Below, one piece after another: positions 6,692 through 63,067 of a stretch of 64,000 nucleotides of DNA (positions are counted from its first letter, which is position 1; every line of letters starts with the position of its first letter). The DNA lies in contig JAQTMH010000005.1 in the NCBI GenBank assembly GCA_028714495.1, forward strand, positions 32,840-96,839, written 5' to 3'. The notes below the pieces were generated by a model. That model did no database searches and was not told where the DNA came from. It worked only from the letters and a program-made list of their open reading frames with translations. The position numbers were made by a program, and so were the translations under genes. This DNA comes from Patescibacteria group bacterium (lineage in GTDB: Bacteria; Patescibacteriota; Patescibacteriia; JAHIZJ01).

Positions 6692-7168
6692 ATGACGACT
6701 GACAAAGAGGCCTATATCACCCAGGAAGGATACGAAAGGCTGAAGAAGGAACTCGAAGACTTAAAGAACAACAAAAGAAAGGAAATCGCCAACCGGATCC
6801 AGGAGGCGAAAGAATTGGGTGATCTATCTGAAAACGCGGAATACGCGGAAGCTAAAAATGAACAGGCCTTTATCGAGGGCCGGGTTATTCAGCTTGAAAA
6901 TTTATTGAAAAATGTAACGATTATTGAAAGCAACAAGACGCCTCTTAATAAAAATATCGTTCAGGTCGGATCGGTTATTGAACTTAAAACAGGAAACCGC
7001 AATCAAACATATACGATCGTCGGCTCAAATGAAGCTGATCCCGAATCTGGAAAAATTTCAAATGAGTCGCCGTTGGGCCAGGCATTTCTGGGAAGAAAAA
7101 TTGGCGAGCAAGTAGAAGTGGCTATTCCCGCGGGCAAGGTTACGTATACGATAACAAATATTAAATAA
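6692..7168 (+). CDS. greA: transcription elongation factor GreA
   Basis: GDLSENAEYAEAKNEQ motif, an N-terminal coiled coil and a C-terminal FKBP-like domain. Length 158 aa. A GGAG RBS lies upstream. Confidence 0.85.
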   Translation: MTTDKEAYITQEGYERLKKELEDLKNNKRKEIANRIQEAKELGDLSENAEYAEAKNEQAFIEGRVIQLENLLKNVTIIESNKTPLNKNIVQVGSVIELKTGNRNQTYTIVGSNEADPESGKISNESPLGQAFLGRKIGEQVEVAIPAGKVTYTITNIK

Positions 7169-7281: not shown

Positions 7282-8760
7282 ATGAGCCGACTCGATGAAA
7301 CCAGAGACATAAGATTAGCCAAGCTCAAAAAAATAGTTGAGCTCGGTTATTGCGCTTATCCGTCTGAATCACACCGGACCCATAAAACGGCTGACGCGGT
7401 ATCGGCCTATGAAGAACTTTCGAAAAAGACAAACCCGATAACTTTAGCCGGCCGAATACGTTCAATCAGACGGCATGGCGGTTCGGCTTTTGTCGATATT
7501 AATGATTTGACCGGAACAATTCAAATATTCATAAGCCGGGCTGAGACAGGGGAAAAGGCGTATAAAGAATTCGCGGAGTTGATCGATCCGAGCGACCTGG
7601 TCGAGTTTAGCGGCACCCTATTTAAAACCAAGCAGGGGCAGATAACGTTAAACGCGAAAACCTACAACTTGCTCTCAAAAAGTTTGAGAAATATTCCAGA
7701 AGATCATTTTGGATTAAAAGACGTGGAGACCAGGCTGCGCAAAAGGTATCTTGATCTGGCCGTCAATCCGGAAACTCGGCAATTATTTATTAAGAAGTCT
7801 GTTTTTTGGCAAAGCCTGCGCCAATTAATGACGCAGCATGATTTTCTGGAAGTCGAAACGCCGGTGCTTGAAGATATCCCTGGCGGCGCCGAAGCAGAAC
7901 CGTTTATCACTCATCACCAGGCCTTGGATCGCGATTTCTTTTTGCGCATCTCTTTGGAGCTTCCATTAAAGAGACTTCTCGTCGGAGGCCTGGAAAAGGT
8001 CTTTGAGATTGGCAGGATCTTCCGCAATGAAGGAATCTCGACTGAACATCTCCAGGATTATACTCAGCTGGAATTTTATTGGGCTTACGCTGATTATAAC
8101 GATCTGATGAAATTCGTCCAAGAATTATATCGAGAAACGATTAAAAAAGTGACCGGCAGCCTGGTCATTACCAGCCGAGGCCATAAGGTTGATTGGGGCA
8201 AGCCATGGAAAACGTATGACTACTTCGATGAATTTGAAAAAAATACCGGACTTAAGCTGGAAAAAGTTACCGAGGCGCAATTAAAAATTGAAGCAAAAAA
8301 GCTCGGGCTGGCATTTGAGAAACATGCCGGACGAGGCAAACTAATCGATTTAATTTACAAAAAGAAAGTCAGGCCGAAACTAATCGATCCTGGATTCCTG
8401 GTCAATCCTCCCGTCGACATTGAACCTCTGGCTAAACGTCTGCCGAAAGAACCAGACCGGGTTCAACGCTTTCAGGTAATGGCTTACGGCACGGAACTAG
8501 GCAAGGGCTTTTCGGAATTGAATGACCCGATTGATCAGCGGGAGCGTTTTGAACAGCAGATGAAGCTTAGGGCGGCCGGAGATAAAGAAGCCCAGATGAT
8601 TGATGAAGACTATCTTGAAGCCATGGAATACGGCCTGCCCCCGGCCGCCGGTTTTGGTTTATCAGAAAGGTTGTTCTCGGTCATCATGGATGTAACCGCA
8701 CGCGAGGCGGTTCTTTTCCCGCCCATGAAAGTTGAAGATAATATAAACAACAATGAATAG
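7282..8760 (+). CDS. lysS: lysyl-tRNA synthetase, class II
   Basis: N-terminal OB anticodon-binding domain. The class II core includes FLEVETPVL and EIGRIFRNEGIS motifs. Confidence 0.9.
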   Translation: MSRLDETRDIRLAKLKKIVELGYCAYPSESHRTHKTADAVSAYEELSKKTNPITLAGRIRSIRRHGGSAFVDINDLTGTIQIFISRAETGEKAYKEFAELIDPSDLVEFSGTLFKTKQGQITLNAKTYNLLSKSLRNIPEDHFGLKDVETRLRKRYLDLAVNPETRQLFIKKSVFWQSLRQLMTQHDFLEVETPVLEDIPGGAEAEPFITHHQALDRDFFLRISLELPLKRLLVGGLEKVFEIGRIFRNEGISTEHLQDYTQLEFYWAYADYNDLMKFVQELYRETIKKVTGSLVITSRGHKVDWGKPWKTYDYFDEFEKNTGLKLEKVTEAQLKIEAKKLGLAFEKHAGRGKLIDLIYKKKVRPKLIDPGFLVNPPVDIEPLAKRLPKEPDRVQRFQVMAYGTELGKGFSELNDPIDQRERFEQQMKLRAAGDKEAQMIDEDYLEAMEYGLPPAAGFGLSERLFSVIMDVTAREAVLFPPMKVEDNINNNE

Positions 8761-49842: not shown

Positions 49843-50319
49843 CTACTTCGGCGGATCCTGCCAAGTGGTGGCTTTGCCATCCGCCGGCAGCCTCACCTTG
49901 TACCCACCGTAGCACCAGGGCCATCCAGTCTTTCCGTTGGCGCCCCGGCAGTGCAGATACAGAGTCAGGTTCTTGTCGCAGGAACCGATGGCGTAGGTGA
50001 CCTCGCTTGCCGAATCCGGAACGTTGACAAGCTCGGGATCACCCATCAAACAATTGTCCCCTGACAACGAGACGGTGTAGGGTCCGGTGCCCGGGCCATC
50101 GTCCCACTGAACCTGCGTCGGGAATTGGACATGGGCCGTGAACAGGTACATCCCGCCGCCGATGTAGCTGACCTTGAAGTTGGGGTTGTCGATCACGACC
50201 ACGGTATCCGTGGGCGCGGACGCAGGCGTGACCGCCGACGGCGTGATCTGTGCCATCGCCGGAGCAATGCAGAAAGCCATCACTGCCAGCGTCAGCAACA
50301 GAACCAGGGTCTTTCTCAT
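49843..50319 (-). CDS. secreted hypothetical protein (GC-rich island)
   Basis: Start placed at MRKTLVLLLTLAVMAFCIAPAMA (signal peptide), with SD AAAGGGAGGAAGG upstream. GC about 58%. Confidence 0.5.
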   Translation of the reverse strand: MRKTLVLLLTLAVMAFCIAPAMAQITPSAVTPASAPTDTVVVIDNPNFKVSYIGGGMYLFTAHVQFPTQVQWDDGPGTGPYTVSLSGDNCLMGDPELVNVPDSASEVTYAIGSCDKNLTLYLHCRGANGKTGWPWCYGGYKVRLPADGKATTWQDPPK

Positions 50320-50380
50320 CTTTCCTTCCTCCCTTTCGTTTTTGGTGGTTGGCGATCTGATACAGTTCCGAAACGTGGTT

Positions 50381-51250
50381 CTAGTTCCCGCCGATGATGA
50401 TGCCGTAGCGCCGCTCATCGCCGGGACGGAGGTTGACTACCTGTCCGTCCGACGTGACGCGATATTCGAACACGAACCATCCGCCGCCGAGGTCCCGGAG
50501 GTTCTTCAGCTCCGTGGCAGCGGAGAAGTTCCCGACCGGACCGACGAATACGCCGGAGCGCAACTCGTCACCATTCGTCTTCTGCAAGCGGATCAGCGCC
50601 AATGAGTTCTTGCGAACCCTCATGGTTGTCGTCCAAGTGCTGTCAGCGAATTGCATCGGGTGGGTCGTGTACTGGAAAGTTGTCCACGTTCCCCACCAGT
50701 ACACCGGTCTGTCGGGGTTGGCAGGCCAGTCCAGGTTCGGGTCGTTGAAAGCCGTACCCGTGTACCAGACCTGGGCGCCCATGATGGAGTCCACGACGCC
50801 GGGATTGACCATGACTTGGCCATTCTCGACGTACAGTTGGAACTCACGCAAGATGGACCATTCGGTACCACGAGACGACAGCAACTGCTGGTCGTTGACG
50901 GCAACATCCAGCAGCCGGTTCATCCGATCCTCCCCGTCCATGTACCAGAAGCCGACGGTGAATCTCTCGGTTCCCCAGACCGACCTCGAGTAGGTACCCG
51001 TGACGTGTCCCTCTGAGAATGTCCCGAACAAGTGGAGCGTGTCAGGATTGGCGCTCGAGACGACATCGCCTGTGATGTACACCGGCCATCCGTCTTGTGC
51101 TCCCATCGGAGCCGTCGCGTTGAGCGTCAAGCTGACAGTCTCCTGGTCGGAAAGCCCGGGAGCGGCGAAATCCCAGCTGTCGCGCGAGCACCCGGCGCAA
51201 ATCGCCAGGACACCGATCACCAGCCATAGCCATCCGTGCATACGACTCAT
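50381..51250 (-). CDS. hypothetical lipoprotein (GC-rich island)
   Basis: Signal plus lipobox LAICAGCS. SD GAGGAGGAG. 289 aa. Confidence 0.5.
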   Translation of the reverse strand: MSRMHGWLWLVIGVLAICAGCSRDSWDFAAPGLSDQETVSLTLNATAPMGAQDGWPVYITGDVVSSANPDTLHLFGTFSEGHVTGTYSRSVWGTERFTVGFWYMDGEDRMNRLLDVAVNDQQLLSSRGTEWSILREFQLYVENGQVMVNPGVVDSIMGAQVWYTGTAFNDPNLDWPANPDRPVYWWGTWTTFQYTTHPMQFADSTWTTTMRVRKNSLALIRLQKTNGDELRSGVFVGPVGNFSAATELKNLRDLGGGWFVFEYRVTSDGQVVNLRPGDERRYGIIIGGN

Positions 51251-51263
51251 CTTCGCTCCTCCT

Positions 51264-53114
51264 CTACCAGCCGTGGTCCAGGCCGATGCCGAACCAATGG
51301 CGGTCTGTGTGTGTGACCTCTCCGTTTGTCAGATTCCGATCGGTTGTGTCATTCATGAACTTGTACAAACCCTTGATTCGCCAGTACCGGTTAAAGCGGT
51401 ACTCGAAGCCCGCGCCAGGCCCGTTCCAGTCGAAACTCCATACCTGGCTGTCATACGACCAGGAGTCGTAAGACGCGTAGAGTACGAGCTTGTCCACTGG
51501 CTTGATGCCGATCCTTCCTTCGAAAACCCGCATCGTATCAGCGGAGAACGACAGGGTCTGGCCGTCGAAGTGACGAGCCTGCTCCTTTCGAAGCGCTCGA
51601 TCATAGGACGCCCGGAAATAGAACTTTCCAGGCTCAACAGTGTAGTTGCCGCCCAAGGAGTAGTCGAGGTTGGTACCACGCTTGTAGGTCATCTCGTAAT
51701 ACCCCAGCTGTGGAGTAATGCCGAGAATCCGACCATACCAGCCGTACCCATCGAAATACTTCGCCTTCTCCTGGGCGTGAATGAGGGTTGGCGTAACGTT
51801 GGTGTACTGTACGTACTCGCGCTGGCTTGATAGATACCAAGCTCCAGGTTCAAACCCTGTCCGCCAGAGACCTTGGAGGTCTCCGAGGATCCAGGCCCGT
51901 CCTCCGAGCCGATATTCACCGCTGACATGGTTCTTGTCCATGACAGCTTGTTCGACCCGGATGACAGTTGACATGTCGCAGAAGGGTCCCCAGCCATCAT
52001 AGCCGGAGATCCTCGGCAGCCACTCAAGGCCGCCGAAAACCGAGTGTTGATACGCATCATCCCTCACGTCCGCGTAGGCCAAACGGTAGTCCAGCCACCA
52101 CACTCCGCCCTGCACGAAATTGTGCGAAGTTTCAGGTGGAGCAGTGATCGGCGTAGCAACTGTCTGCGTAGGCGGAGCTGCGGTGCTGACTGGCGGAGGT
52201 TGCTGAATAGTGACGTCAGTCGAACCTTCATAGGAAAGAGGCACACGAACGAAGGCTCCGTTTTGGCAGTCGACGAACTGATACAGATAGTACCGGTAAT
52301 CGCCGAGGTCAACGGGATCATACTGCAGTGCTACCAGCCGATCAATCGGTTTGTGGTTCTTCGCGTCCTTCCAGTAGCAGACGGTTCTTCCCCAGGACTT
52401 CACGTCCTTTGAGAAACGCCCGCCGAAGATGAGCGCGTCGAGAACCAGCGGTTTGGATTCAGTGGAATACATCCAAACTGAATCCGGTTGGTTACCCCCG
52501 ATAATCGACTCCCACTGCGCGCGGACTTGTTCCGGTACGTTCATGAGCCGAAGTTGATCCTTCAGCTCGATTCCAGCCGGGTCACCGTTGGCGAAGTTCC
52601 ACGTGCGGAGCACATCAGATGGCTGCGCCATGAAAATCTTCGCGTCTGCTTTGGGTTTCCTACCAGTCGCCTGGTTGAAGCGCTTGATGTCCTCTTCGGA
52701 CACCCCAGCCTCTTTGGCGATCTCTTGCCAGCTTTCTCCCTTTTTGACGACTCTGGTAGGCGGCAGCTGAATCGGTTCCGGCTGCTTTTCCGTGCGTCTG
52801 ATATCGAGTTTGGTGTCCTGCACCGGGATCCATTCAGACCCCTTACAATACGCCAGTACCCGATATTCCACCCAGAAAGCGTCTCCACCCACCTGTTCAA
52901 CCGCGAAGTTGCCGTCTTTCGGCACCTGGATCCGTGTGATCCGTGAGTCAACAAGCTGTCCCACCTCAACCATGTTGCCGCCACCGGGCATGGTTACGTT
53001 GGCAAGATTGACAACCTTGCCATAAGGGGGCTGCTCGCACTGCGCGAAGACTGCGGAGCCGGTCGTCAATACGACCAGCGCGACCAAAACCGCCAGAACC
53101 GTATACCAACGCAT
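51264..53114 (-). CDS. secreted LysM-domain protein with C-terminal outer-membrane-type beta-barrel (GC-rich island)
   Basis: Signal peptide, a LysM-like segment (ESWQEIAKEAGVSEEDIKRF), and a C-terminal ~270 aa of amphipathic beta strands ending ..FGIGLDHGW. SD AAAGGAGGAT. Confidence 0.5.
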   Translation of the reverse strand: MRWYTVLAVLVALVVLTTGSAVFAQCEQPPYGKVVNLANVTMPGGGNMVEVGQLVDSRITRIQVPKDGNFAVEQVGGDAFWVEYRVLAYCKGSEWIPVQDTKLDIRRTEKQPEPIQLPPTRVVKKGESWQEIAKEAGVSEEDIKRFNQATGRKPKADAKIFMAQPSDVLRTWNFANGDPAGIELKDQLRLMNVPEQVRAQWESIIGGNQPDSVWMYSTESKPLVLDALIFGGRFSKDVKSWGRTVCYWKDAKNHKPIDRLVALQYDPVDLGDYRYYLYQFVDCQNGAFVRVPLSYEGSTDVTIQQPPPVSTAAPPTQTVATPITAPPETSHNFVQGGVWWLDYRLAYADVRDDAYQHSVFGGLEWLPRISGYDGWGPFCDMSTVIRVEQAVMDKNHVSGEYRLGGRAWILGDLQGLWRTGFEPGAWYLSSQREYVQYTNVTPTLIHAQEKAKYFDGYGWYGRILGITPQLGYYEMTYKRGTNLDYSLGGNYTVEPGKFYFRASYDRALRKEQARHFDGQTLSFSADTMRVFEGRIGIKPVDKLVLYASYDSWSYDSQVWSFDWNGPGAGFEYRFNRYWRIKGLYKFMNDTTDRNLTNGEVTHTDRHWFGIGLDHGW

Positions 53115-53262
53115 CGGATCCTCCTTTGGGTCTCCCCGTGTATCTTGTGATTCAAAACTACCTATTCAGTTGTCAGTGAGCCATCTATTGAGCCAAAGGC
53201 TCTAAAGTCCTGTGAGTGTTAGCTTCAACTGGACTTATAAAGCCTTCGGCCAGAATATTTAA

Positions 53263-54174
53263 TTATTCAAAATTACGGAATTCCTCTTCAGGTTCATTCC
53301 ACTTTTTTGGAGGTTGTCCTGGTTCTGGAATATCCTTGACATGGTCATAGAGTGTTTTTATCCGTCTATCTTGAAAATGTTCCTCCGGGTGGTTTTTTTC
53401 TCTGTTGACGGCGCCGACTTCTTCTATCTTGTTTTGTTTTGGATAATAACTTTCGAAAACAAATTCATTTTTCTTCTTGATAACCGGCTGCCGTTCGTCA
53501 ATCTCTTTTGTTATCTCGGATTTTTCTTCTTTCAACCCGCCCGTGCTTTTCACTTTTTTCAATTCGGGAGATGCCTTGGTCATTGATCTGAGAATATGAT
53601 AACCGCTCGAACCAACAAATCCAATAATAAATCCCGCAGCCAGATTTAAGGGAATGTTCGGCCGAACCGGATTATTGCTGGTCAATGGGTAGTCAACAAT
53701 CTTGAGGATTATCGAATTACCGCCGCCCAGATATTCCACGCCATTTTCCGACAGCACCATGGCTAAGGCCTTGGCCACGCTGTTTGCTTTATTCTTATCC
53801 TGATTATAAACCGAGATTTTTACCAAGCCGACTTCGGGCATTACCCTTGTTTCAATCTGATGTTTCCATTGCTCACGCTTCTTCGCTTCATCACCGTTGA
53901 GGATAGTGTCTTTTGACAAATAACCTGAGCTGGCCACTTTATCATAAAACGAAGTCGTATAAATAACTCGGGCCAGCGAATTGCTCAGTCTTTCAGCCGA
54001 CTTAGCCGCGGAGTAAGCATCCAAGTTTTGTGATTTTTCGATCACCATTAAAGAGAAAGTTGAGCCATACTCAAATGGCTGAATAAACGTGAAGATTACG
54101 CTAATAGCCAAAGCTAATAGTGTAATTAGACCGATTGATTTCCAATTTTCCTTAATCTTAGCGAAATAATTCAT
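53263..54174 (-). CDS. polysaccharide co-polymerase / chain-length determinant (Wzz-like)
   Basis: An N-terminal TM, a periplasmic domain and a second TM (LNLAAGFIIGFVGSSGY), with a charged C-terminal tail. Confidence 0.6.
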   Translation of the reverse strand: MNYFAKIKENWKSIGLITLLALAISVIFTFIQPFEYGSTFSLMVIEKSQNLDAYSAAKSAERLSNSLARVIYTTSFYDKVASSGYLSKDTILNGDEAKKREQWKHQIETRVMPEVGLVKISVYNQDKNKANSVAKALAMVLSENGVEYLGGGNSIILKIVDYPLTSNNPVRPNIPLNLAAGFIIGFVGSSGYHILRSMTKASPELKKVKSTGGLKEEKSEITKEIDERQPVIKKKNEFVFESYYPKQNKIEEVGAVNREKNHPEEHFQDRRIKTLYDHVKDIPEPGQPPKKWNEPEEEFRNFE

Positions 54175-54332
54175 ATTAATTGCTATTCTTTAAATTAATA
54201 ATATACGTTTTATGTGCATTGCCTGTAAAACGAATAAAATTAACATAGATTAACAACCTTGTCAAGGGGATAACAAAAGAACAGACTGACCGAGTCTGTT
54301 TAATTTAGATTAAAACGCGATTTTAGACAATA

Positions 54333-54485
54333 TCAGGTAAAAAGCTCAACTATATTATCCATAAGAAGCAAAACAACAAACATGATCAAAATTAATAATC
54401 CTAGGCAGCTTATACCGATAAAAAATAAAATACGACTGATAAATAATTTCTTTTCAATTTCTTGTTCATTTTGTTTATCAATCAT
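54333..54485 (-). CDS. small single-TM protein (50 aa) translationally coupled to the AMP phosphorylase gene; not in the ORF track
   Basis: TGA-AC-ATG junction with the deoA-like gene. Translation: MIDKQNEQEIEKKLFISRILFFIGISCLGLLILIMFVVLLLMDNIVELFT. Confidence 0.3.
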   Translation of the reverse strand: MIDKQNEQEIEKKLFISRILFFIGISCLGLLILIMFVVLLLMDNIVELFT

Positions 54486-54487
54486 GT

Positions 54488-55981
54488 TCAGGCGATATCA
54501 AAAATTTTTATTTTGCTGATGGCCGCTTCAGCCAATCTCATCCTTTCGCGGCTCTGGGCGTAAAGGGTATAGGTGGGATCGCCCTCTTTAACAATGCCTC
54601 CGATCCTTTGATGAAGATGCAGACCGGCTAATTTTTCTTCGGGCGCTCCCAGAAGTCGGGCGATCTCATCGATGGCCATATCGTTGACTTTAACGATTCT
54701 GCCATCCTTTTGAGCAAAGCACCGATGTTTGATCGCTCCCATAGTCAGATCATCCGCCTTAATCCTCGGGTTGCCGCCCTGCAACTTGATAATGCTTTGC
54801 ATCTTTTTCCAGGCCTGGCCTGAATCAAGAATTGCCTGGGCGCGAGAGCGACCCTGGCCACGTTTTACTTTGCCGCAGAGTTCAAGAAGTTCGCCGGCTA
54901 AGAGTACCGATTTTTTTTCGAGATCCCGCGGTCTTAGGGGGTGGCGTTGGAGAACTCTCAAAACATCCCTGGCTTCGAGCGCCGGTCCGACTCCCCGGCC
55001 GATCGGTTCAAGCGCTTCCGACATTCTAACCTTTAGCTTCATGCCAAACCTTCTTCCAAGATATAAAAATTTTCGTTCAATCTCCCAAGCCAGTTTTATA
55101 TTCGGTATCTTGGTATTCGGACCAACCGGCATATCGATCACGAGGTATTTAATACCCATGGCAACCTTCTTGGCCATAATACTGACAATCATCTTGTTGT
55201 ACGGCTCAATGCCCAATGGGTGCGAGGCTCGAATAATTCGGTCATCCGCCGGCGCAATATTTAATTCGCCGCCCCAAAGCAAACAACAGTTATTCTTTTT
55301 CACGAATTTTTTAATATTTTCCACGGAATGCTCAACCGGCGCCAGCACTTCCATCGTATCCGCTGTACCAGCCGGCGAGGTTACGGCTCTCGAAGAAGTT
55401 TTTGGAATAATTAAGCCAGTCGCCGCCACAATCGGCACCAGTACCATTGAAGTCCGGTTGCCGGCCAAACCGCCGACCGAATGCTTGTCCACGACCTTGC
55501 CGGGAAAATAAATAGTATTTCCGGTTTCAGCCATAGCCTTGGTCAAAAAATAAAGTTCTTCGTCAGAATAATGCCGGGCAAAACTACTGGCCACGAAATA
55601 GCTAATTTCACTCCGACCCAGTCGGCGATCAACAATGTCTTTGATGATTGAATAAATTTCTTTATATGACAATTCATGGCCGAGTAATTTCTTGATTATC
55701 GCTTTAATCGAGGCCGGCCTAGACAAAACCTTGACCTGGACTATTTGCCCCTTTTTCAAAGGATAGTCTTCCCAAATTTCCCGAAACAGACCAATTTCAC
55801 CGGGTTTGACCCTAGAGCTAGTGAAATCAGCCTCGGCAATCAGTTTATGTTTGCCCCATCTAATTTCCAGATCGTCATTAGGCTGAATCCCCAAATTTTT
55901 CGCTTCTTTATCCCGCAAAACAGCCACGTAAGCTCCCTCAGCAACAAAATCCAATTGTTTGCTTTTTAAGAAAAATGGCAT
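54488..55981 (-). CDS. AMP phosphorylase (archaeal-type thymidine-phosphorylase-family DeoA)
   Basis: The thymidine-phosphorylase core (SSRAVTSPAGTADTMEVL) with an archaeal AMPpase-type N-terminal extension. 497 aa. Adjacent to RuBisCO. Confidence 0.8.
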   Translation of the reverse strand: MPFFLKSKQLDFVAEGAYVAVLRDKEAKNLGIQPNDDLEIRWGKHKLIAEADFTSSRVKPGEIGLFREIWEDYPLKKGQIVQVKVLSRPASIKAIIKKLLGHELSYKEIYSIIKDIVDRRLGRSEISYFVASSFARHYSDEELYFLTKAMAETGNTIYFPGKVVDKHSVGGLAGNRTSMVLVPIVAATGLIIPKTSSRAVTSPAGTADTMEVLAPVEHSVENIKKFVKKNNCCLLWGGELNIAPADDRIIRASHPLGIEPYNKMIVSIMAKKVAMGIKYLVIDMPVGPNTKIPNIKLAWEIERKFLYLGRRFGMKLKVRMSEALEPIGRGVGPALEARDVLRVLQRHPLRPRDLEKKSVLLAGELLELCGKVKRGQGRSRAQAILDSGQAWKKMQSIIKLQGGNPRIKADDLTMGAIKHRCFAQKDGRIVKVNDMAIDEIARLLGAPEEKLAGLHLHQRIGGIVKEGDPTYTLYAQSRERMRLAEAAISKIKIFDIA

Positions 55982-55985
55982 TTTA

Positions 55986-57239
55986 TTATTTCCAGTGTTT
56001 TAGAGCTGCCTTTAGGACCGGGCTATCCTCAGCCTGTTTGTTGATCGGCGTGCCTTTGACCGCTGCTAGGACCGCTTCTTTTACTGCCTGGGCTCCGGCT
56101 AGAGTTCCGTTCGGATGGCCGTGTATTCCACCGCCAAAGTTTACTATCACATCCGGTCCGGTAATTTTATAAAGCCGTGCGATTAATCCCGGGTGAAGTC
56201 CGCCTGAAGCGATCGGCATTACTTTTTTAATCCGGCCCCAGGGCTTTTTTAAAAACGAATTGATTGCCACGGTCTCTTCGACTGAACCTGCCATTTTCCC
56301 GACCACGGTGCCAGTATGAAGCTGGTCAATGCCCGCCAGCCGCGCCAGCTTCGCGATAACCAGCATTGAAATTCCGCGCTCCGGATCGCGGGTAATCGCT
56401 GAATGCATTGCCCGGTGGCCATGGAGAATCAAACCGAGCTTGGCTTGGCGCAAAGCCTGCAAGCCAGAAAAGCCGATCGTCATGATATCAACCATGGCGC
56501 AATTGCCACCCTGGCTCTTGATATACTTTGCCCGGCGGATCATTTCGTCAGCCGGCGCCGTGATATTAAACGCGCAGATTTTCATTTCGCCGGTTTCTCG
56601 CTCAGCCCGGCGAGCCAGCCTTAGGGTTTCTCTGACTCTGTTTGTAAATGGATTGAACTTCAAGTCAGTTAAATTTTCATCGTCTTTGACCAAGTCGGCT
56701 CCGCCTTTGAAGCAGAGGTAGGCAAATCGAGCGTGCGCTCTCCAGCTCAAACCGATTTTCGGCTTCATAATCGCTCCGATTAAAGGCCGGCCCGGTATTT
56801 TTATTTTTCGGCGTACGCCCGCTATACCAAAGGCTGGTCCGGCAAAGGAATTGATATAAACAAGGGGCAGATCCAAATCTACCAGCCGCAATTTTGAAAC
56901 CACCTTCATGCTGAAAATATTTCCAGACACGCTCGACAAAAGCTGAGGTATGTTTCCTGGTTCAAAGAGCTCAATGGGATAAGCGATTCTAGCTAAATTT
57001 TTTTTAGTATTCAGGCCAATAACCTTAGCCGAAAGTCTTTTAAAAACCGACTCGCTCAACGTTCCAACTTCGGTCCAGGTGCCAATTGATGACTCGCCAG
57101 CCACAATCTGGGCGATTTCCTTTAAAGGCAACTTCGATTCAATTCGAAAAGTTGCCACCAGGTGGCTCTTTAAGTCAAGCCGCCGATTCAGCGCTAAATA
57201 ATTTGATTTGGGGCGGGCATTTTTCATTGTAAAATCCAC
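55986..57239 (-). CDS. rbcL: ribulose-1,5-bisphosphate carboxylase large subunit, form II/III
   Basis: GAIMKPKIGLS and GGADLVKDDENL active-site motifs. 417 aa. Confidence 0.9.
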   Translation of the reverse strand: MDFTMKNARPKSNYLALNRRLDLKSHLVATFRIESKLPLKEIAQIVAGESSIGTWTEVGTLSESVFKRLSAKVIGLNTKKNLARIAYPIELFEPGNIPQLLSSVSGNIFSMKVVSKLRLVDLDLPLVYINSFAGPAFGIAGVRRKIKIPGRPLIGAIMKPKIGLSWRAHARFAYLCFKGGADLVKDDENLTDLKFNPFTNRVRETLRLARRAERETGEMKICAFNITAPADEMIRRAKYIKSQGGNCAMVDIMTIGFSGLQALRQAKLGLILHGHRAMHSAITRDPERGISMLVIAKLARLAGIDQLHTGTVVGKMAGSVEETVAINSFLKKPWGRIKKVMPIASGGLHPGLIARLYKITGPDVIVNFGGGIHGHPNGTLAGAQAVKEAVLAAVKGTPINKQAEDSPVLKAALKHWK

Positions 57240-58156
57240 GGGTAGTACTTTTTTGCGTATTGTCTCACTTGCCTTGGCTCGATCAAACCAAATTCAGTCA
57301 CTAAATAAGTTATTTGATTGGCCGGTACTTTATCAAAGGCGAAATTCAGAATTTCCAGGCCAGCTGGCGCGCCAGCCCAAACCTCCTTAGCCGGCCGTTT
57401 CTCTATTTTCACCGGTATCTGGCCGACGCATTTCAATAGGCTGGCCACGATGTAAACTGGCACATGATTGACGCTGGCCGAGAGGGTTAAGCCAAAGCTG
57501 CCTATTTTATTTAACACTGAACCGTCGGGCATAATCGCGTCTGCCCCGATGACAACCGAATTCATCATTAAATCGCGTCCTGACGCGGGACTGATCAAAA
57601 ATGGTCCAGCGCTATCGACAATCATAGTGACTGGAATTCCCTTGGTCCGAAGCGCCTTGGCGGTAATTCGTCCCTGAAAAAGTGGCCGGGTTTCAGAAGT
57701 GTACACGTGGAATTTCTTTTTTCTGTGCGTCTCAATCAGAAGCTGTTCAGTTGTCGAAGAATGGCAATGGGTAAAAATCCTATCCCCGCTTTTAATGATT
57801 GCCCGCCCCAAAAGGCTGATTCGACTCTGAGTTTGCGCCAGCAGTTTAATGAATTCCTGGGCGCTTTTTTTCAGAATAAAAACCGAGGGCTGCTGGTTGA
57901 TCCTCTTCCAGACAAATAATAGTCCGTTTCTAGTCAGAGGTTCGGTCGGACGACTGTGCTGAAGGAGATAAGCCATCGCTACCTTCATTTCGTGTTTCCA
58001 GTTTTGCGATTTTTTTATCTTTAGGTTCGAACCAAACCGTACATAGGCTTCAAGCGTAGCTCGGGCGACAGCGGTGGCGCCTTGAATTTTTATGCTCTGG
58101 ATGTCCCGGATAACGCCGTTAAAAGAGTTGTAATGCATAATTTTAAAATTATTCAA
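57224..58156 (-). CDS. ribose-1,5-bisphosphate isomerase (e2b2 / eIF-2B-like family)
   Basis: 310 aa eIF-2B alpha/beta/delta-like protein immediately upstream of rbcL. Forms the canonical AMP-salvage trio. Confidence 0.75.
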   Translation of the reverse strand: MNNFKIMHYNSFNGVIRDIQSIKIQGATAVARATLEAYVRFGSNLKIKKSQNWKHEMKVAMAYLLQHSRPTEPLTRNGLLFVWKRINQQPSVFILKKSAQEFIKLLAQTQSRISLLGRAIIKSGDRIFTHCHSSTTEQLLIETHRKKKFHVYTSETRPLFQGRITAKALRTKGIPVTMIVDSAGPFLISPASGRDLMMNSVVIGADAIMPDGSVLNKIGSFGLTLSASVNHVPVYIVASLLKCVGQIPVKIEKRPAKEVWAGAPAGLEILNFAFDKVPANQITYLVTEFGLIEPRQVRQYAKKYYPWILQ

Positions 58157-58209
58157 TTAAAAAAACTCACCAAACGCCTGAAGGTTACCGCCTTTTAAGT
58201 ATAACCGGT

Positions 58210-58578
58210 CTATTTTGGTAAATACCTCTTAATTTTATTGACCAAATCCGCCAGCTTGACATTGGCTTTGACATAGTAGTCTTTGGCGCCTAAATCTTTA
58301 GCCTTTTTTATCTCGGTTTTCTCGCCAAAATTTGAGAGAACAATAATGGGCAGATTCTTCCAAGTCTTGTCTTTTTTGATCTCATCGAGAACCGCGTAGC
58401 CGTTTTTCTTGGGCATCAATAGATCTAATAATACAACCTCCGGTTTAAAAGACCTTATTTTTTCCAGCCCCATTTCACCGTCCATTGCCGTCTCGACCTC
58501 ATAGCCGCTTTTCCTAAGCTTGTCGCTTAAGGCCTGTGAAAGGAATGCTTCATCTTCGACAACAAGTACTTTTGCCAT
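58210..58578 (-). CDS. stand-alone response-regulator receiver protein (CheY-like)
   Basis: VLVVEDE..LLDLLMP..K receiver motifs. 122 aa, no output domain. Confidence 0.8.
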   Translation of the reverse strand: MAKVLVVEDEAFLSQALSDKLRKSGYEVETAMDGEMGLEKIRSFKPEVVLLDLLMPKKNGYAVLDEIKKDKTWKNLPIIVLSNFGEKTEIKKAKDLGAKDYYVKANVKLADLVNKIKRYLPK

Positions 58579-58580
58579 GG

Positions 58581-58958
58581 CTACTTCTTGGTATATTCGT
58601 GGATCTTGGTTTTTATCTCTTCTAGATTGGTCTTAGTTTTGACCAAATATTCCGCCACTCCGAAATCCCTTGCCTTTTTGATATACGAGGAATCGTCTAA
58701 ATTGCTCAGGATTAACACTGGTATTTCTTTGGTCGTGGGATCGGCCTTCAACTTTTCTAAGACCTCAAATCCGCTCATCTTCGGCATGATTAAATCAAGT
58801 AGAATAATGTTCGGCTTCTTGGTTTTAGCGAATTCTACGCCGTCATTACCGTTTCTGGCCAATTCAATAATAAAATCGTTTTTTTCCAGCTTGGTTTTTA
58901 GCGCTTTGCTAATTATATCCTCGTCCTCAACAACGAGTACGGTTATTTTGTTGTTCAT
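58581..58958 (-). CDS. stand-alone response-regulator receiver protein (CheY-like)
   Basis: VLVVEDEDIIS..LLDLIMP motifs. 125 aa. Confidence 0.8.
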   Translation of the reverse strand: MNNKITVLVVEDEDIISKALKTKLEKNDFIIELARNGNDGVEFAKTKKPNIILLDLIMPKMSGFEVLEKLKADPTTKEIPVLILSNLDDSSYIKKARDFGVAEYLVKTKTNLEEIKTKIHEYTKK

Positions 58959-58962
58959 ATTA

Positions 58963-61389
58963 TTAAATTAATGTCTTTTCGCCTTCCCGCCTGGTGCTTC
59001 CGGCGATTGGCAAGGTAAAGAAGAAATTGGTGCCCCTGCCTTCTTCCGATTTAAACCAGATCTTACCGCCTGAGGCTTCGACCACCGATTTCGCGACATA
59101 GAGCCCCAAGCCAGTTCCTTCGGTCTGCAGAGTAATGACATTATCAGCCCGGAAAAACTTTTTAAAGACTTTTGACTGCTGGGATTTTGGAATGCCGACG
59201 CCCGTGTCAAAAACTTCAAAAGTCAAAAACTTCGCATCCCGACTGACCCGAACTCCCAATTTGCCTCCCTCAGGCGTATACTTAACGGCATTTGAGATTA
59301 GATTCTGAAATACCTGTCGGATCAACTTTGGATCAATCTTTATTTGGGGAGTACCGCCAGATAATTTTTCAAATACCGTCTTCTGTTTTTTCTGTTTGAT
59401 TATATGAGCCAGTTCAAAAATCACGCTTTCGATCATGCCATCGATATCGGTCAGTATCGGCTCTATGGCAATTGTGCCAGATTCGATGCGCGAGACATTC
59501 AAGAGGTCGTTGACCAGAGCGATCATTCGCTCGTTGGACTTGGTAATATGATCGATATATTCAGACTGCTCCTTATTTAGCTTTCCCGCGTCACCATCCA
59601 TGAGCATCTCGAGAAACCATTTCGAGGCCGACAATGGCGTGCGCAACTGATGCGAGGCGACAGACACGAACTCTGATTTCATCTTATCAATCTCTTGTTC
59701 CTTTGTCACGTCCTTAATAACTACCACGCCACCGTGAATTTCACCGCTGGGATCTTTTAAGGGTGTCGCGGTAATAGTCACGGGTATCCCTTTTTTCTTT
59801 TTGGTTACGACGGCGAATTCCCCGGTTCCGGTAGCCACTACGTTACCGGTCTCGATCGCCTTGATAATCGGATTTACATCCTTGTTTTTATCGGTCAGCT
59901 TGATGTATTTTAGATTAATAATCGCGTCTAAATCTTTTCCAATTATTTCCGGGATCCGATAGTCAAGCAAGTCGCTGGCCGCTTCGTTGCAAGCGATAAA
60001 CTCTTTATCTTTATTCAAAGCCAATACGCCATCACCGACATTCTGTAAAATTGATTCAGATTTGTTTTTTTCATCTTCAATCGAATGTCTGGCAATTTCC
60101 AGATCCCTTACCTTTTGGCGTAATTCTTGAGTTCGTTCGGCTACCAGCGCCTCCAATTTTGTATAGTACTCGTGAAGTTTGTCCTTCATGTTGATAAAAC
60201 TATGCGTCAAGTCGCCAATCTCGTCTTCTCTTTCCGGCGGCTGGATATCGATATCCAGATTACCATGACTTAGCCGGTTAGCGTTAATCGCCAGTTCCTT
60301 CAACGGCCGAGTGATAGATTTAACCAGAAATCTTGTGATAAAGTAGATCAGCACAAACATACCCACGCCAATAATCAAAAATCTTAGACGGATTGAACCG
60401 ATGCTGCTGGTGACTTCTGATTCAGGTATGCCCCTGGCGATGCTCCCGATTACTTCATTCTCAAAATTTCTGATCGGCTGATAAGCCACTAGGTACCATT
60501 CATCGAGTTCAAACGCTCTACCGGAAAAATCTTTTTGGGTTATATAAACAGTATTAACTATTTCTTCGGAAGCCAATGTTCCAATCGCCCGCTTGTTAAT
60601 ATTCTGATATTGCTGCGTAGTGGCGGCCCGGGCATCATAGAGATACAGCGACGCGATACCCCTGCCTCGCTGGACCAAACGATCGAGTATTTCATTATTA
60701 TTATTCAAGAGAACTCCCCCAATGATCGCACCGACAACCTCACCGTCATTGATTATCACAGTGCCCGCCGCCATCACCAAACCATCATGTTCATCTTCCT
60801 GGGTTCGCCATCCTTGTTTTGACTTTTCCGTGGGTATTCTATTTATCAAAGCTTTTTTAGCCAACTCCTCAGAATGGGCTTGCATTTCTTCCTGGGTGAT
60901 TATTTCAACCGATTTGCCAGTGGTTTTATTCTTAATTACATTTTCTACATAACCCTTGAGTGATATTTTCTGTCCAACTTTAATATTTTCACTACCGACT
61001 AAGATGTTTCCTTTTGAATCTACAATATCAACAAAACTCAATCCTTGGGCTTCCTGAGTATTTTTTATTTGTTTCTTAAGAGCGACATACTCGGATAATT
61101 CCTCTAATTTTGAAATGTCTTTTTCAGCAGCTAACGTATTCACTGTTTGGACAAAATCTTGGCCTCGGGCTAATGATTCAACGTCAGTTAGAATTTGATC
61201 ATGACTCTCACTGAACACAATTGAAAATGTCTCAAGCGTGGCATTAACGCGTTCCTGTACTTCCGTTTTCAGACTGCCAGTAAAAGTCGAAATTATCATG
61301 TAAACAAAAATTGCGATTACGCAACCGGCAATCGCCACCATGTAATAGAGAAAACGCGTGTTTAAACTCGAAGAGAAAAATTTCGCCAT
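58963..61389 (-). CDS. sensor histidine kinase (TM - periplasmic sensor - TM - HAMP - PAS - HisKA - HATPase)
   Basis: H-box SHQLRTPL, N-box NLISNAVKYT and G-boxes DTGVGI and GTGLGL. Two TMs bracket a ~300-aa extracytoplasmic domain. Confidence 0.85.
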   Translation of the reverse strand: MAKFFSSSLNTRFLYYMVAIAGCVIAIFVYMIISTFTGSLKTEVQERVNATLETFSIVFSESHDQILTDVESLARGQDFVQTVNTLAAEKDISKLEELSEYVALKKQIKNTQEAQGLSFVDIVDSKGNILVGSENIKVGQKISLKGYVENVIKNKTTGKSVEIITQEEMQAHSEELAKKALINRIPTEKSKQGWRTQEDEHDGLVMAAGTVIINDGEVVGAIIGGVLLNNNNEILDRLVQRGRGIASLYLYDARAATTQQYQNINKRAIGTLASEEIVNTVYITQKDFSGRAFELDEWYLVAYQPIRNFENEVIGSIARGIPESEVTSSIGSIRLRFLIIGVGMFVLIYFITRFLVKSITRPLKELAINANRLSHGNLDIDIQPPEREDEIGDLTHSFINMKDKLHEYYTKLEALVAERTQELRQKVRDLEIARHSIEDEKNKSESILQNVGDGVLALNKDKEFIACNEAASDLLDYRIPEIIGKDLDAIINLKYIKLTDKNKDVNPIIKAIETGNVVATGTGEFAVVTKKKKGIPVTITATPLKDPSGEIHGGVVVIKDVTKEQEIDKMKSEFVSVASHQLRTPLSASKWFLEMLMDGDAGKLNKEQSEYIDHITKSNERMIALVNDLLNVSRIESGTIAIEPILTDIDGMIESVIFELAHIIKQKKQKTVFEKLSGGTPQIKIDPKLIRQVFQNLISNAVKYTPEGGKLGVRVSRDAKFLTFEVFDTGVGIPKSQQSKVFKKFFRADNVITLQTEGTGLGLYVAKSVVEASGGKIWFKSEEGRGTNFFFTLPIAGSTRREGEKTLI

Positions 61390-61396
61390 GCCAATC

Positions 61397-61555
61397 CTTT
61401 TTTATAAACCCAGTTTGGTAATAATCCGGTTTAACACGTTGGGCCGGTAATCAAATGGCTGATGTTCTCTTAATTCCGGCATAATAAAAACCCACTCGGC
61501 CGGCTGGGTGGGATATCTGACAATAAATTTTTTTGCCTGCTTTATTTTTGTTTTC
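61397..61555 (-). CDS. possible 52-aa ORF immediately upstream of the kinase gene (not in ORF track)
   Basis: Translation: MKTKIKQAKKFIVRYPTQPAEWVFIMPELREHQPFDYRPNVLNRIITKLGL. Its stop is 5 nt from the kinase start. Weak support. Confidence 0.2.
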
Positions 61556-61757
61556 ATGTTTTAATTATAGCATAGTTAATGAATTTTGTCCAGCAAAAAC
61601 AGAATAATCAAAAATTTATAAAGAATTTTGACATTGTGGATAACCTCCTCTTGACGTTCGGTTTTTGTTCGGGTAGGATATAAATATCGAGATATTCACA
61701 ACCTTGAATGAGTAATAAAGCGGTTTGTGATTGATAACAAAATGTGGAATAATTCAA

Positions 61758-62228
61758 AATTAAAAATGTAAAATTCAAAAGGAAGGAAGACGACAGGGAG
61801 AAATGAAGGGCATTTTATGGCTGTCGTCACTATTCATCAACGCACCTTAAAATTTAGTATTACTATTACTCGTTTCCTTCATAAGATTATCGCCACACCA
61901 AAATCGCACATCATCAGAAATCAGCTCATGCGATCAGGGTGTTCAATCGGCGCCAATATTGTCGAAGCGCAACATAGCGTCACCAAGAAGGAGTTTCAAC
62001 GCTTTATAAGTATCGCCTTACGTTCTGCTAGAGAGACCGAATACTGGCTGAATATATTAAAGGAGCTCGAAAACAATCATCAACCGTTTATCAACAATAT
62101 TCTCCGAGAAAATGATGAAATTTCTAAAATTATCGCAGCCATAATTCTTAAATCAAAGGATGGGACTTAAATTTTGCGTTTTGAATCCTTAATATTATAC
62201 ATTAATTTTGAATTTTACATTTTTAATT
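61758..62228. mobile_element. 471-bp unit bounded by perfect 23-bp inverted repeats (AATTAAAAATGTAAAATTCAAAA / TTTTGAATTTTACATTTTTAATT) carrying a four-helix-bundle protein gene
   Basis: IRs seen at 61758-61780 and 62206-62228. A further copy is at 49346-49368. Confidence 0.5.
61817..62170 (+). CDS. four-helix-bundle protein (TIGR02436 / 23S rRNA intervening-sequence protein family)
   Basis: HQRTLKFSI..RNQLMRSGCSIGANIVEAQ..SARETEYWL is the characteristic pattern. 117 aa. Confidence 0.75.
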   Translation: MAVVTIHQRTLKFSITITRFLHKIIATPKSHIIRNQLMRSGCSIGANIVEAQHSVTKKEFQRFISIALRSARETEYWLNILKELENNHQPFINNILRENDEISKIIAAIILKSKDGT

Positions 62229-62294
62229 CTTTAAAAGATCTACCATAATTTTGCATTTTTAATTTTAAATTTTTAATTCTTAATTGACATTCAT

Positions 62295-62951
62295 ATGGTT
62301 GAACGCCTTACTAAAAAACAAAAAGAAATTCTTGACTTTGTAATCGAGTTTATAAAGGTAAGCGGCTATTCACCGAGTTATCGGGAAATTGCCGACCATC
62401 TCGGTCTGTCCTCCCCTGCCACCATCCATGAACATATCCGAGGACTTGAAGACAAGGGCTATCTCAAGGCCCAAGAGGGCCGGGCTCGCTCGCTTGAACC
62501 AACCCGGGCAACGCGTTTCAAAAAAGCGCTTGAATTACCCCTCGCTGGTTTGATTACAGCCGGAGAGCCGATTGAGGCTGTTCAAGAAAATGAGACAATT
62601 ACCGTTCCGGCGGAAATTGTTCGCGATGAAAATTCTTATGTCCTGAAGGTTAAGGGTGAATCAATGATCGAGGATGGAATACTGGACGGCGATTATGTAA
62701 TTGTTGAACGCAATTTCTATCCGCGAAATGGCGATGTAGTCGTAGCTCTACTGGACAATACCTATGCCACGCTTAAACGTTATTACCGTGAAAGGTCGCG
62801 CATCCGCCTTCAGCCAGCCAATTCAAAGATGAAGCCGATTTATTCCAAGAATCCGGCGATTCAGGGAATTGTCCGTGCCATTTTCCGCAAGTTTGAAACT
62901 GATTGGCAGAACTATAAAACCTACACTAGAGGTTTTCAGACGGTAAAGTAG
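62295..62951 (+). CDS. lexA: LexA repressor (S24 peptidase)
   Basis: N-terminal winged HTH (SYREIADHLGLSSPATIHEHI) and the C-terminal Ser/Lys dyad region (VKGESMIEDGI..ATLKRY). Confidence 0.85.
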   Translation: MVERLTKKQKEILDFVIEFIKVSGYSPSYREIADHLGLSSPATIHEHIRGLEDKGYLKAQEGRARSLEPTRATRFKKALELPLAGLITAGEPIEAVQENETITVPAEIVRDENSYVLKVKGESMIEDGILDGDYVIVERNFYPRNGDVVVALLDNTYATLKRYYRERSRIRLQPANSKMKPIYSKNPAIQGIVRAIFRKFETDWQNYKTYTRGFQTVK

Positions 62952-62960
62952 AACAAAGGT

Positions 62961-63067
62961 AATGTAAAATTAAAAATTAAGAATTAAAAATGATGGTAAT
63001 CCGCCGCAGGCGGATACAATAATTTTAAATTTTACATTTTGTCCCCGACTTGATCGGGGATTGAATT
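62961..63067. repeat. mini inverted-repeat element (AATGTAAAATTAAAAATT .. TCCGCCgcaGGCGGA hairpin .. AATTTTAAATTTTACATT) followed by the CCCCGACTTGATCGGGG + ATTGAATT hairpin
   Basis: 18-bp IR with one mismatch. Second copy of the composite hairpin seen at 9340-9364. Ends 8 nt before the ATG of 63075. Confidence 0.45.

Follow-up and report, generated by a model that had tools for sequence, protein, structure and literature searches.

Sensor kinase and two output-less receivers behind the promoter of a RuBisCO salvage operon suggest signal control in a small clade of tiny uncultured Patescibacteria

Can a bacterium with hardly any sensors place its nucleotide salvage under the control of a signal? 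To our knowledge, bacteria within the Candidate Phyla Radiation (CPR), or Patescibacteria, have very few sensors, nobody has worked out how their minimal metabolism is regulated, and what is said of the role of their form III RuBisCO derives from genomic inference and one heterologous complementation. The question is raised by a 64,000-nucleotide (nt) stretch of a Patescibacteria genome (contig JAQTMH010000005.1 of assembly GCA_028714495.1, positions 32,840 to 96,839), here called the window, in which genes for a sensor histidine kinase and two stand-alone receivers precede those for the three enzymes of a RuBisCO-based AMP salvage pathway. In a small clade of these tiny, uncultured bacteria, the kinase and the two receivers, which lack output domains, lie behind the promoter of the salvage trio, an arrangement that suggests signal control of the pathway. 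Compared loci are labelled L001, L002 and so on, and the window itself WIN.

Eight genes follow one another on the minus strand in the order small open reading frame (ORF) 1, kinase, receiver 1, receiver 2, e2b2, RuBisCO, AMP phosphorylase and small ORF 2. Their intergenic distances are -4 to 12 nt throughout, save for one 71-nt spacer between receiver 2 and e2b2 (58139..58209, minus strand), the sole sizeable gap, which ends in a U7 run. An earlier note on this DNA had listed the six larger genes in this order, and an ORF listing places all six at the coordinates it gave. The extent it proposed, 54488-61389, holds for those six, but the small ORFs, the promoter and the terminator extend the unit at both ends. 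Likewise, its gaps of 4, 2 and 53 nt, an overlap and 4 nt match the first available start codons, whereas the N-termini of orthologs lengthen the third from 53 nt (to TTG 58156) to 71 nt (to ATG 58138).

The unit is framed by predicted transcription signals. A promoter-like site at 61564..61592 (minus strand) combines the -35 element TGGACA (61592-61587), a 17-nt spacer and the extended -10 element TGcTATAAT (61572-61564); with 11 of 12 matches and an upstream TG, it is the top match in a 10-kb scan (53000-63000). The string TGCTATAAT-N6-ATG before small ORF 1 is identical in seven loci (WIN, L001, L002, L081, L083, L086 and L153), and since this ATG lies 6 nt past the -10 element, the mRNA would be leaderless or nearly so. 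At the other end, terminator scanning and folding identify an intrinsic-terminator-like hairpin of 8 bp followed by the U-rich CUUUUGUU (54280..54300, minus strand). This hairpin is conserved in WIN, L083 and L086, and past it the next gene, Wzz, has a promoter-like site of its own. Rfam models matched nothing in the whole window, and known riboswitches or leader RNAs are accordingly absent.

The sensor histidine kinase (808 amino acids; 58963..61389, minus strand) is predicted to consist of a first transmembrane helix, an extracytoplasmic double-Cache region (nt 60385-61284), a second transmembrane helix, HAMP (60169-60330), PAS (59701-60057), HisKA (59476-59682) and HATPase_c (59005-59334) domains. 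The Pfam and NCBIfam scans thereby bear out the order HAMP-PAS-HisKA-HATPase read earlier from the translation. HisKA (8.6e-19) and HATPase_c (1.5e-29) matches, together with intact H, N, G1, F and G2 boxes (SHQLRTPL, NLISNAVKYT, DTGVGI, FKKFFRAD and GTGLGL), mark it as a predicted class I (HisKA) sensor kinase, and Pfam finds no Response_reg domain in it. For the periplasmic part, where Cache and CHASE had been named as families to check, the answer is Cache-type: the region matches sCache_3_3 (1.7e-20), Cache_3-Cache_2 and, weakly, dCache_3. An AlphaFold model of residues 1-356, with a mean predicted local distance difference test score of 90.8, shows a long N-terminal helix and two PAS-like modules, and its best fold matches are the dCache sensors DctB, PctA, Tlp3 and LuxQ, which share this extracytoplasmic architecture. 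At the level of the predicted structure, the fold class of the sensor is settled as double-Cache. Pfam places it in Cache_3-Cache_2 / sCache_3_3 and not in dCache_1, and the identity to its fold matches is only 9-14%, so that a ligand cannot be read from them.

Searches with the sensor alone recover little of its family. A homolog search with the sensor region returned distant relatives only (22-38% identity) and missed the true orthologs, which were taken from retrieved loci instead. When metagenomes were scanned with a sensor alignment, whose patterns derived from HAMP, 62 of 64 loci carried unrelated kinases and the other two were orthologs duplicating known loci; a PDB sequence search with the sensor profile matched HAMP domains only. 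Each kinase ortholog that was recovered adjoins the enzyme trio.

Receiver 1 (125 amino acids; 58581..58958) and receiver 2 (122 amino acids; 58210..58578), both on the minus strand, consist of a Response_reg domain only, which spans residues 7-119 and 4-116, respectively. Alignment shows the acidic pair, the phospho-acceptor Asp, the Ser/Thr and the Lys to be conserved in all orthologs, as expected of stand-alone receivers. The earlier note had called them orphans, a term that does not fit proteins which stand alone as polypeptides and are encoded beside a kinase. The two form distinct orthologous groups about 40-45% identical to each other, with 54-73% identity within that of receiver 1, and their alpha-1 helices are similar, which is consistent with one kinase serving both. 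Against models of EpsW, CheY and DivK they score far below the cutoffs (48-52 bits against 200 for EpsW). Among the genes of the unit and of the scanned flanks, none codes for a DNA- or RNA-binding output. The 64-kb window holds no further receiver or kinase; scans of the window, none of them aimed at Hpt, turned up no Hpt domain.

The three enzymes that follow form a recognizable salvage set, part of an AMP or pentose-bisphosphate pathway reportedly worked out in Thermococcus (by Sato in 2007 and Aono in 2015). The first, e2b2 (57224..58138, minus strand), belongs to the IF-2B family (PF01008, 7.7e-51; 173 bits), and scores 168.6 against the 314.1 demanded by the TIGR00511 equivalog model. 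Its first available start is TTG 58156 (ORF 57224-58156), and ortholog N-termini favour ATG 58138. We presume it to be the ribose-1,5-bisphosphate isomerase from its conserved position beside RuBisCO and deoA, as in previously described genomes (PMC6389311). The last, a DeoA-like AMP phosphorylase of 497 amino acids (54488..55981, minus strand), passes TIGR03327 by a narrow margin (536.9 against a cutoff of 535) and is also recognized by PRK04350 and TIGR02645.

Between them lies the gene for a RuBisCO large subunit of 413 amino acids (55986..57227, minus strand) with RuBisCO_large_N and RuBisCO_large domains. Its ORF extends to 57239, and ortholog N-termini give ATG 57227, which creates a 4-nt ATGA overlap with the e2b2 stop codon. 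The protein exceeds the PRK04208 threshold (463.7 against 438) and falls short of the strict TIGR03326 equivalog (471.6 against 497.45), and a 39-sequence alignment shows no variation in its catalytic residues, namely the KPK motif, K185-D187-E188, H275, R276, H308, K315, S345-G347 and G369-G371. Its nearest database homologs are from Patescibacteria and labelled 'type III' or 'Form III-c', with 56-62% identity to named Form III-c enzymes, and its best solved relatives are the form III enzymes of Pyrococcus horikoshii and Thermococcus kodakarensis. By these homolog labels and solved relatives, the predicted enzyme is a form III RuBisCO of the III-c subgroup. The form II/III label proposed earlier, which would imply closest similarity to Methanococcoides-type enzymes, was wrong: besides those form III enzymes the top solved hits are further large-subunit RuBisCOs, none apparently a II/III enzyme, in a table that carries no organism or form labels, and the nearest homologs are III or III-c.

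Consecutive e2b2, form III-c RuBisCO and deoA genes have already been described in CPR genomes (Jaffe et al. 2019, PMC6389311), in the same order and with the same tight packing as here. That cluster was described without signalling genes, whereas the window adds a kinase, two receivers and two small ORFs that would share its promoter and terminator.

The small ORFs bracket the unit. Small ORF 1 (61402..61557, minus strand) encodes a basic peptide of 51 amino acids with the motif F.V..P.Q.AEWVFIMP and ends 12 nt before the kinase start; small ORF 2 (54333..54485, minus strand) encodes 50 amino acids with one predicted transmembrane helix and a G.GCL motif, and begins 2 nt past the AMP phosphorylase stop. 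Both are conserved as peptides in WIN, L001, L002, L081, L083 and L086, and the kinase-less L084 has neither; small ORF 2 is annotated as a gene in L081 and L086, and neither has a meaningful Pfam family. Within small ORF 1, over the AEWVFIMP codons, lies a short CCCAC...GUGGG hairpin followed by UUUUUAUUAUG (61480-61515, minus strand), which is terminator-like in scans of L002 and L083. As an attenuator it was rejected: its fold in the window is no improvement on shuffled sequence, and L086 has lost the U tract while retaining the peptide motif, so we read the conservation of small ORF 1 as acting at the protein level. A leader-peptide or attenuator role for the hairpin retains a slight chance.

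Is the linkage itself conserved? A one-genome-per-species scan with a RuBisCO alignment yielded 80 loci, annotated with the window's own proteins, among which the order kinase-receiver-receiver-e2b2-RuBisCO-deoA recurs in L001 and L002; look-ups of closest homologs add L081/L082, L083, L086 and L153. The conservation that the earlier note had proposed to check thus extends to six other species-level genomes, whose RuBisCO is 64-70% identical to that of the window. L153, the closest relative, is a short contig that ends inside the AMP phosphorylase gene, leaving WIN, L001, L002, L081, L083 and L086 as the six complete, aligned loci. Across these, the distances (negative for overlaps) are 4-12 nt from small ORF 1 to the kinase, 4-7 nt to receiver 1, -1 to 4 nt to receiver 2, 27-71 nt to e2b2 (about 25 in L153), -4 to -1 nt to RuBisCO, 0-8 nt to deoA (except 107 in L002) and -4 to 3 nt to small ORF 2. 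Identity to the window proteins across the clade is 60-72% for kinase and receivers and 50-79% for the enzymes, a similarity of range which, with the intact kinase boxes and receiver catalytic residues, argues that purifying selection maintains the signalling genes.

A sister lineage shows the locus without its signalling genes. In L084/L085, with a RuBisCO 63% identical to that of the window, the trio and its flanks are kept (an IMS polymerase gene and lexA upstream; Wzz, a large LysM-like protein and Wzy_C downstream), while kinase, receivers and both small ORFs are absent, and in L084 a TATAAT-N6-ATG directly at e2b2 gives the trio its own promoter. In a neighbour-joining tree of concatenated e2b2, RuBisCO and deoA, L084 is sister to the kinase-bearing clade, with bootstrap values of 97% for the clade and of 100% once L084 is included. 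The module is also missing from more distant relatives (L003, L151, L152 and about 30 others). The simplest reading is a single gain, in which the module came to lie between promoter and e2b2, with a small membrane ORF joining 3' of the trio. The comparison with L084 indicates that the module became integrated into the transcription unit of the trio and, equally, that the pathway works without it.

Whether transcription crosses from receiver 2 into e2b2 depends on the spacer. The earlier note saw no terminator here, and the scan of 53000-63000 agrees, reporting neither a promoter- nor a terminator-like site in the window spacer, which folded alone is no better than shuffled sequence (z-score +0.5). 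In none of the six aligned loci do the 150 nt upstream of e2b2 contain a -10 element of the TGnTAnAAT type. Spacers in relatives measure 25-63 nt, and those of L001, L081 and L153, of only 25-27 nt, are unstructured. Longer spacers can fold: a hairpin of 12-15 bp, pairing CCUUCUC with GGGAGGG or GAGGAGG and followed by a U-rich tail, occurs in L002 (9024-9060, z -2.8) and L083 (7053-7082, z -2.6) and more weakly in L086 (about 7060-7085), and is not seen where the spacer measures 25-27 nt. Neither the L002 nor the L083 hairpin reaches the scan's terminator thresholds. They pair an anti-Shine-Dalgarno-like arm with a Shine-Dalgarno-like 3' arm (GGAGG) and therefore fit translational control as well as termination, possibly as a Shine-Dalgarno-sequestering or attenuating element; GGAGG elements precede e2b2 in L083 and L086, and e2b2 of L084 is leaderless. 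From promoter, spacing and terminator we judge that kinase, receivers and trio are probably co-transcribed.

Outside this clade, comparable arrangements occur in other CPR lineages. In L033, of an unrelated, Gottesmanbacteria-type form III-c lineage, e2b2-RuBisCO leads co-directionally into genes for a receiver, a MASE1-PAS kinase and another receiver; L154, whose RuBisCO is 83% identical, shows the start of the same arrangement with orthologous receiver and kinase, and relatives at 74% identity do not have it. An apparent overlap of the L033 RuBisCO and receiver genes was an artefact of a masked N run, the true gap being about 38 nt. Another Gottesmanbacteria-type locus, L156, carries after e2b2-RuBisCO a 128-amino-acid protein (7287-7673, plus strand) with a weak Sigma70_r4 (helix-turn-helix) match, which may be another linked regulator. 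In L006, a dCache_1-HAMP kinase and two stand-alone receivers adjoin RuBisCO convergently, at the tail of a ClpB...ABC_sub_bind operon; directly upstream of that kinase, an ABC_sub_bind (PF04392) periplasmic binding protein (5005-6003, minus strand) may be a co-sensor. Elsewhere in 1.16 Mb of RuBisCO-flanking DNA only one further receiver gene was found. Taking the published mean of 0.29 kinases per 100 CPR genes (PMC10805038) and six neighbouring gene slots in each of about 37 independent bacterial lineages, a rough calculation gives about 0.64 adjacent kinases expected against three lineages observed (Poisson P about 0.03; about 0.04 with only the two co-directional cases). We regard recurrent kinase adjacency to CPR RuBisCO as suggestive, not decisive.

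How might such a module act? Receivers without an output domain must work by protein-protein contact or need an unlinked partner. The explanation we favour, at a probability of roughly 0.45, is an eight-gene operon running from one sigma-70-type promoter to one hairpin terminator, whose receivers tune the salvage pathway post-translationally. Through its double-Cache domain the kinase would sense a small molecule outside the cell, perhaps with PAS contributing a cytoplasmic cue, and it would phosphorylate both receivers. These would then act by contact, most likely on the co-encoded enzymes or their supply route, so that conversion of AMP through ribose-1,5-bisphosphate and ribulose-1,5-bisphosphate to 3-phosphoglycerate would be adjusted after translation to nucleotide availability. 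Of the two receivers, one may act as a sink for phosphate, and the spacer hairpin of some relatives may govern how much regulator transcript is made relative to enzyme transcript. Direct action on the salvage enzymes, which we favour as a wholly inferred step, has a precedent in the single-domain receiver EpsW, which directly activates an enzyme, EpsZ (PMC12802240). CheY, which acts on FliM, DivK and MrrA are likewise receiver-only proteins with an intact phospho-acceptor and an output by protein contact (PMC12802240, PMC5964349). A bolder and rather unlikely extension would have CPR bacteria recruiting a kinase and paired output-less receivers to these salvage genes independently at least twice, the phosphorylated receivers binding the enzymes directly and gating AMP-to-3-phosphoglycerate flux on an extracellular, possibly host-derived, cue without any transcription factor.

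Several observations weigh against post-translational tuning. The unit encodes no DNA- or RNA-binding output, so that co-transcription means co-expression with the pathway and not control of it; on this count the environmental control proposed in the earlier note was overstated, although the linkage it described is supported by the promoter and the conserved gene order. About 35 other CPR trio loci carry no two-component genes, and the pathway therefore does not need the module. Since the whole neighbourhood is syntenic within the clade, conserved adjacency by itself is a weak argument. The strong hairpins with U-rich tails in L002 and L083, like the U7 run of the window spacer, leave room for partial termination. 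Recurrence stands at a P of only about 0.03 calculated from a published average, and L006 adds weak support to it because its module is convergent and part of another operon.

The main rival, on the unlikely side in our judgement, is that an insertion placed kinase, receivers and small ORFs downstream of a strong promoter, where they are merely expressed along with the trio, their true target lying elsewhere, for example in the adjacent Wzz/Wzy polysaccharide cluster (by an action like that of EpsW), pili or the cell envelope. The absence of two-component genes from most CPR trio loci and the lack of output domains in the receivers would fit such a passenger. So would the cluster of Wzz, LysM-protein, Wzy_C and glycosyltransferase genes that directly follows the unit in every relative, as polysaccharide enzymes are known targets of single-domain receivers (PMC12802240), and so would the L006 module, which belongs to its ClpB...ABC_sub_bind operon and merely converges on RuBisCO. 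However, in L033 and L154 another type of kinase and two receivers are linked to e2b2-RuBisCO in the same orientation and no polysaccharide cluster adjoins them, and in the window the terminator and the separate Wzz promoter split the operon from that cluster. The two small ORFs, moreover, mean that the module brackets the trio on both sides, and the receivers score far below the cutoff of the EpsW model.

An improbable alternative is that the kinase-receiver unit ends within the spacer and the trio is read from a weak promoter of its own, adjacency then coming without co-expression. The break would fall in the sole sizeable gap, where the window has its U7 run and L002 and L083 their hairpins with UUUU-rich tails; L002 also has TATAAA-N6-ATG before e2b2, and the L084 trio is clearly on its own promoter. 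Yet neither the window spacer nor those two hairpins qualify as terminators in the scan, the window spacer lacks significant structure, and in L001, L081 and L153 the spacer is an unstructured 25-27 nt. The Shine-Dalgarno-like arm equally suits translational control, and no -10 element upstream of e2b2 is conserved.

The closest known system with which to compare the proposed operon lies in the Calvin cycle of Rhodopseudomonas palustris. The CbbRRS genes stand beside those of form I RuBisCO, and the regulators CbbRR1 and CbbRR2 act through the LysR regulator CbbR. CbbRRS comprises a kinase and two regulators without DNA-binding domains and tunes RuBisCO-dependent carbon flux (PMC3018481, PMC6430793), which makes it, compared by shared domains, the closest functional analogue of the window module, not a member of the same family. 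Its kinase CbbSR is soluble and, as a hybrid, carries a receiver itself, while CbbRR1 is a phosphotransfer-plus-receiver protein (PMC3018481), whereas here a membrane dCache-HAMP-PAS kinase without a receiver domain is paired with two single-domain receivers; its RuBisCO is a form I Calvin-cycle enzyme, that of the window a form III-c enzyme of the AMP pathway. That the receivers here likewise reach transcription, by phosphorelay to an unlinked DNA-binding regulator or by modulating a transcription factor, with the operon autoregulated from its single strong promoter, is suggested by this parallel (PMC3018481) and appears quite improbable, given that the scanned flanks (51264-54174 and 61817-62951) hold no match to LysR or CbbR, that there is no other receiver in the window, that the sole nearby DNA-binding gene is lexA, with an operator-like repeat in its own divergent promoter, and that by eye no conserved operator-like repeat surrounds the operon promoter.

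The repeat beside lexA is a feature in its own right. The direct repeat GTTCGGTTTTTGTTC (GTTC-N7-GTTC; 61656-61670) lies in the spacer of a promoter-like TTGACG-17-TAGGAT site (61651-61679, plus strand) that faces a 23S_rRNA_IVP-family gene (61817-62170) and lexA (62295-62951). The same string also occurs beside lexA in L002, L083, L086 and L084, and it looks like a putative autoregulatory LexA operator of the direct-repeat type. It is about 60 nt from the -35 element of the kinase/RuBisCO operon, on the opposite strand. On the far side of the unit, window positions 50000-52000 have a local GC content of 0.58 against about 0.43 for the rest. An ORF there (50381-51250, minus strand) encodes a lipoprotein-like secreted protein whose signal peptide ends in Cys; relatives have, matched by position, ORFs of 276-304 amino acids without a precomputed Pfam hit.

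What the predicted operon adds to a known salvage cluster is an acquired signalling module, found in one small clade and with an independent parallel elsewhere. Text searches of the literature found no report tying two-component genes to this pathway and no paper describing such a linkage, which the earlier note had taken to be uncharacterised; the accounts of the trio in PMC6389311 and by Wrighton et al. (PMC5113843) mention no signalling genes. A promoter shared by module and salvage enzymes provides an experimental handle on the signal, the targets of the receivers and the timing of the pathway, and as the proteins can be produced recombinantly, these questions are addressable without culturing. 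Should the module prove to be a hitch-hiker, it would illustrate how streamlined genomes add genes to operons they already have. If instead the receivers do tune the salvage enzymes, this would be a second case, with a different mechanism, of two-component control over RuBisCO that dispenses with a DNA-binding response regulator.

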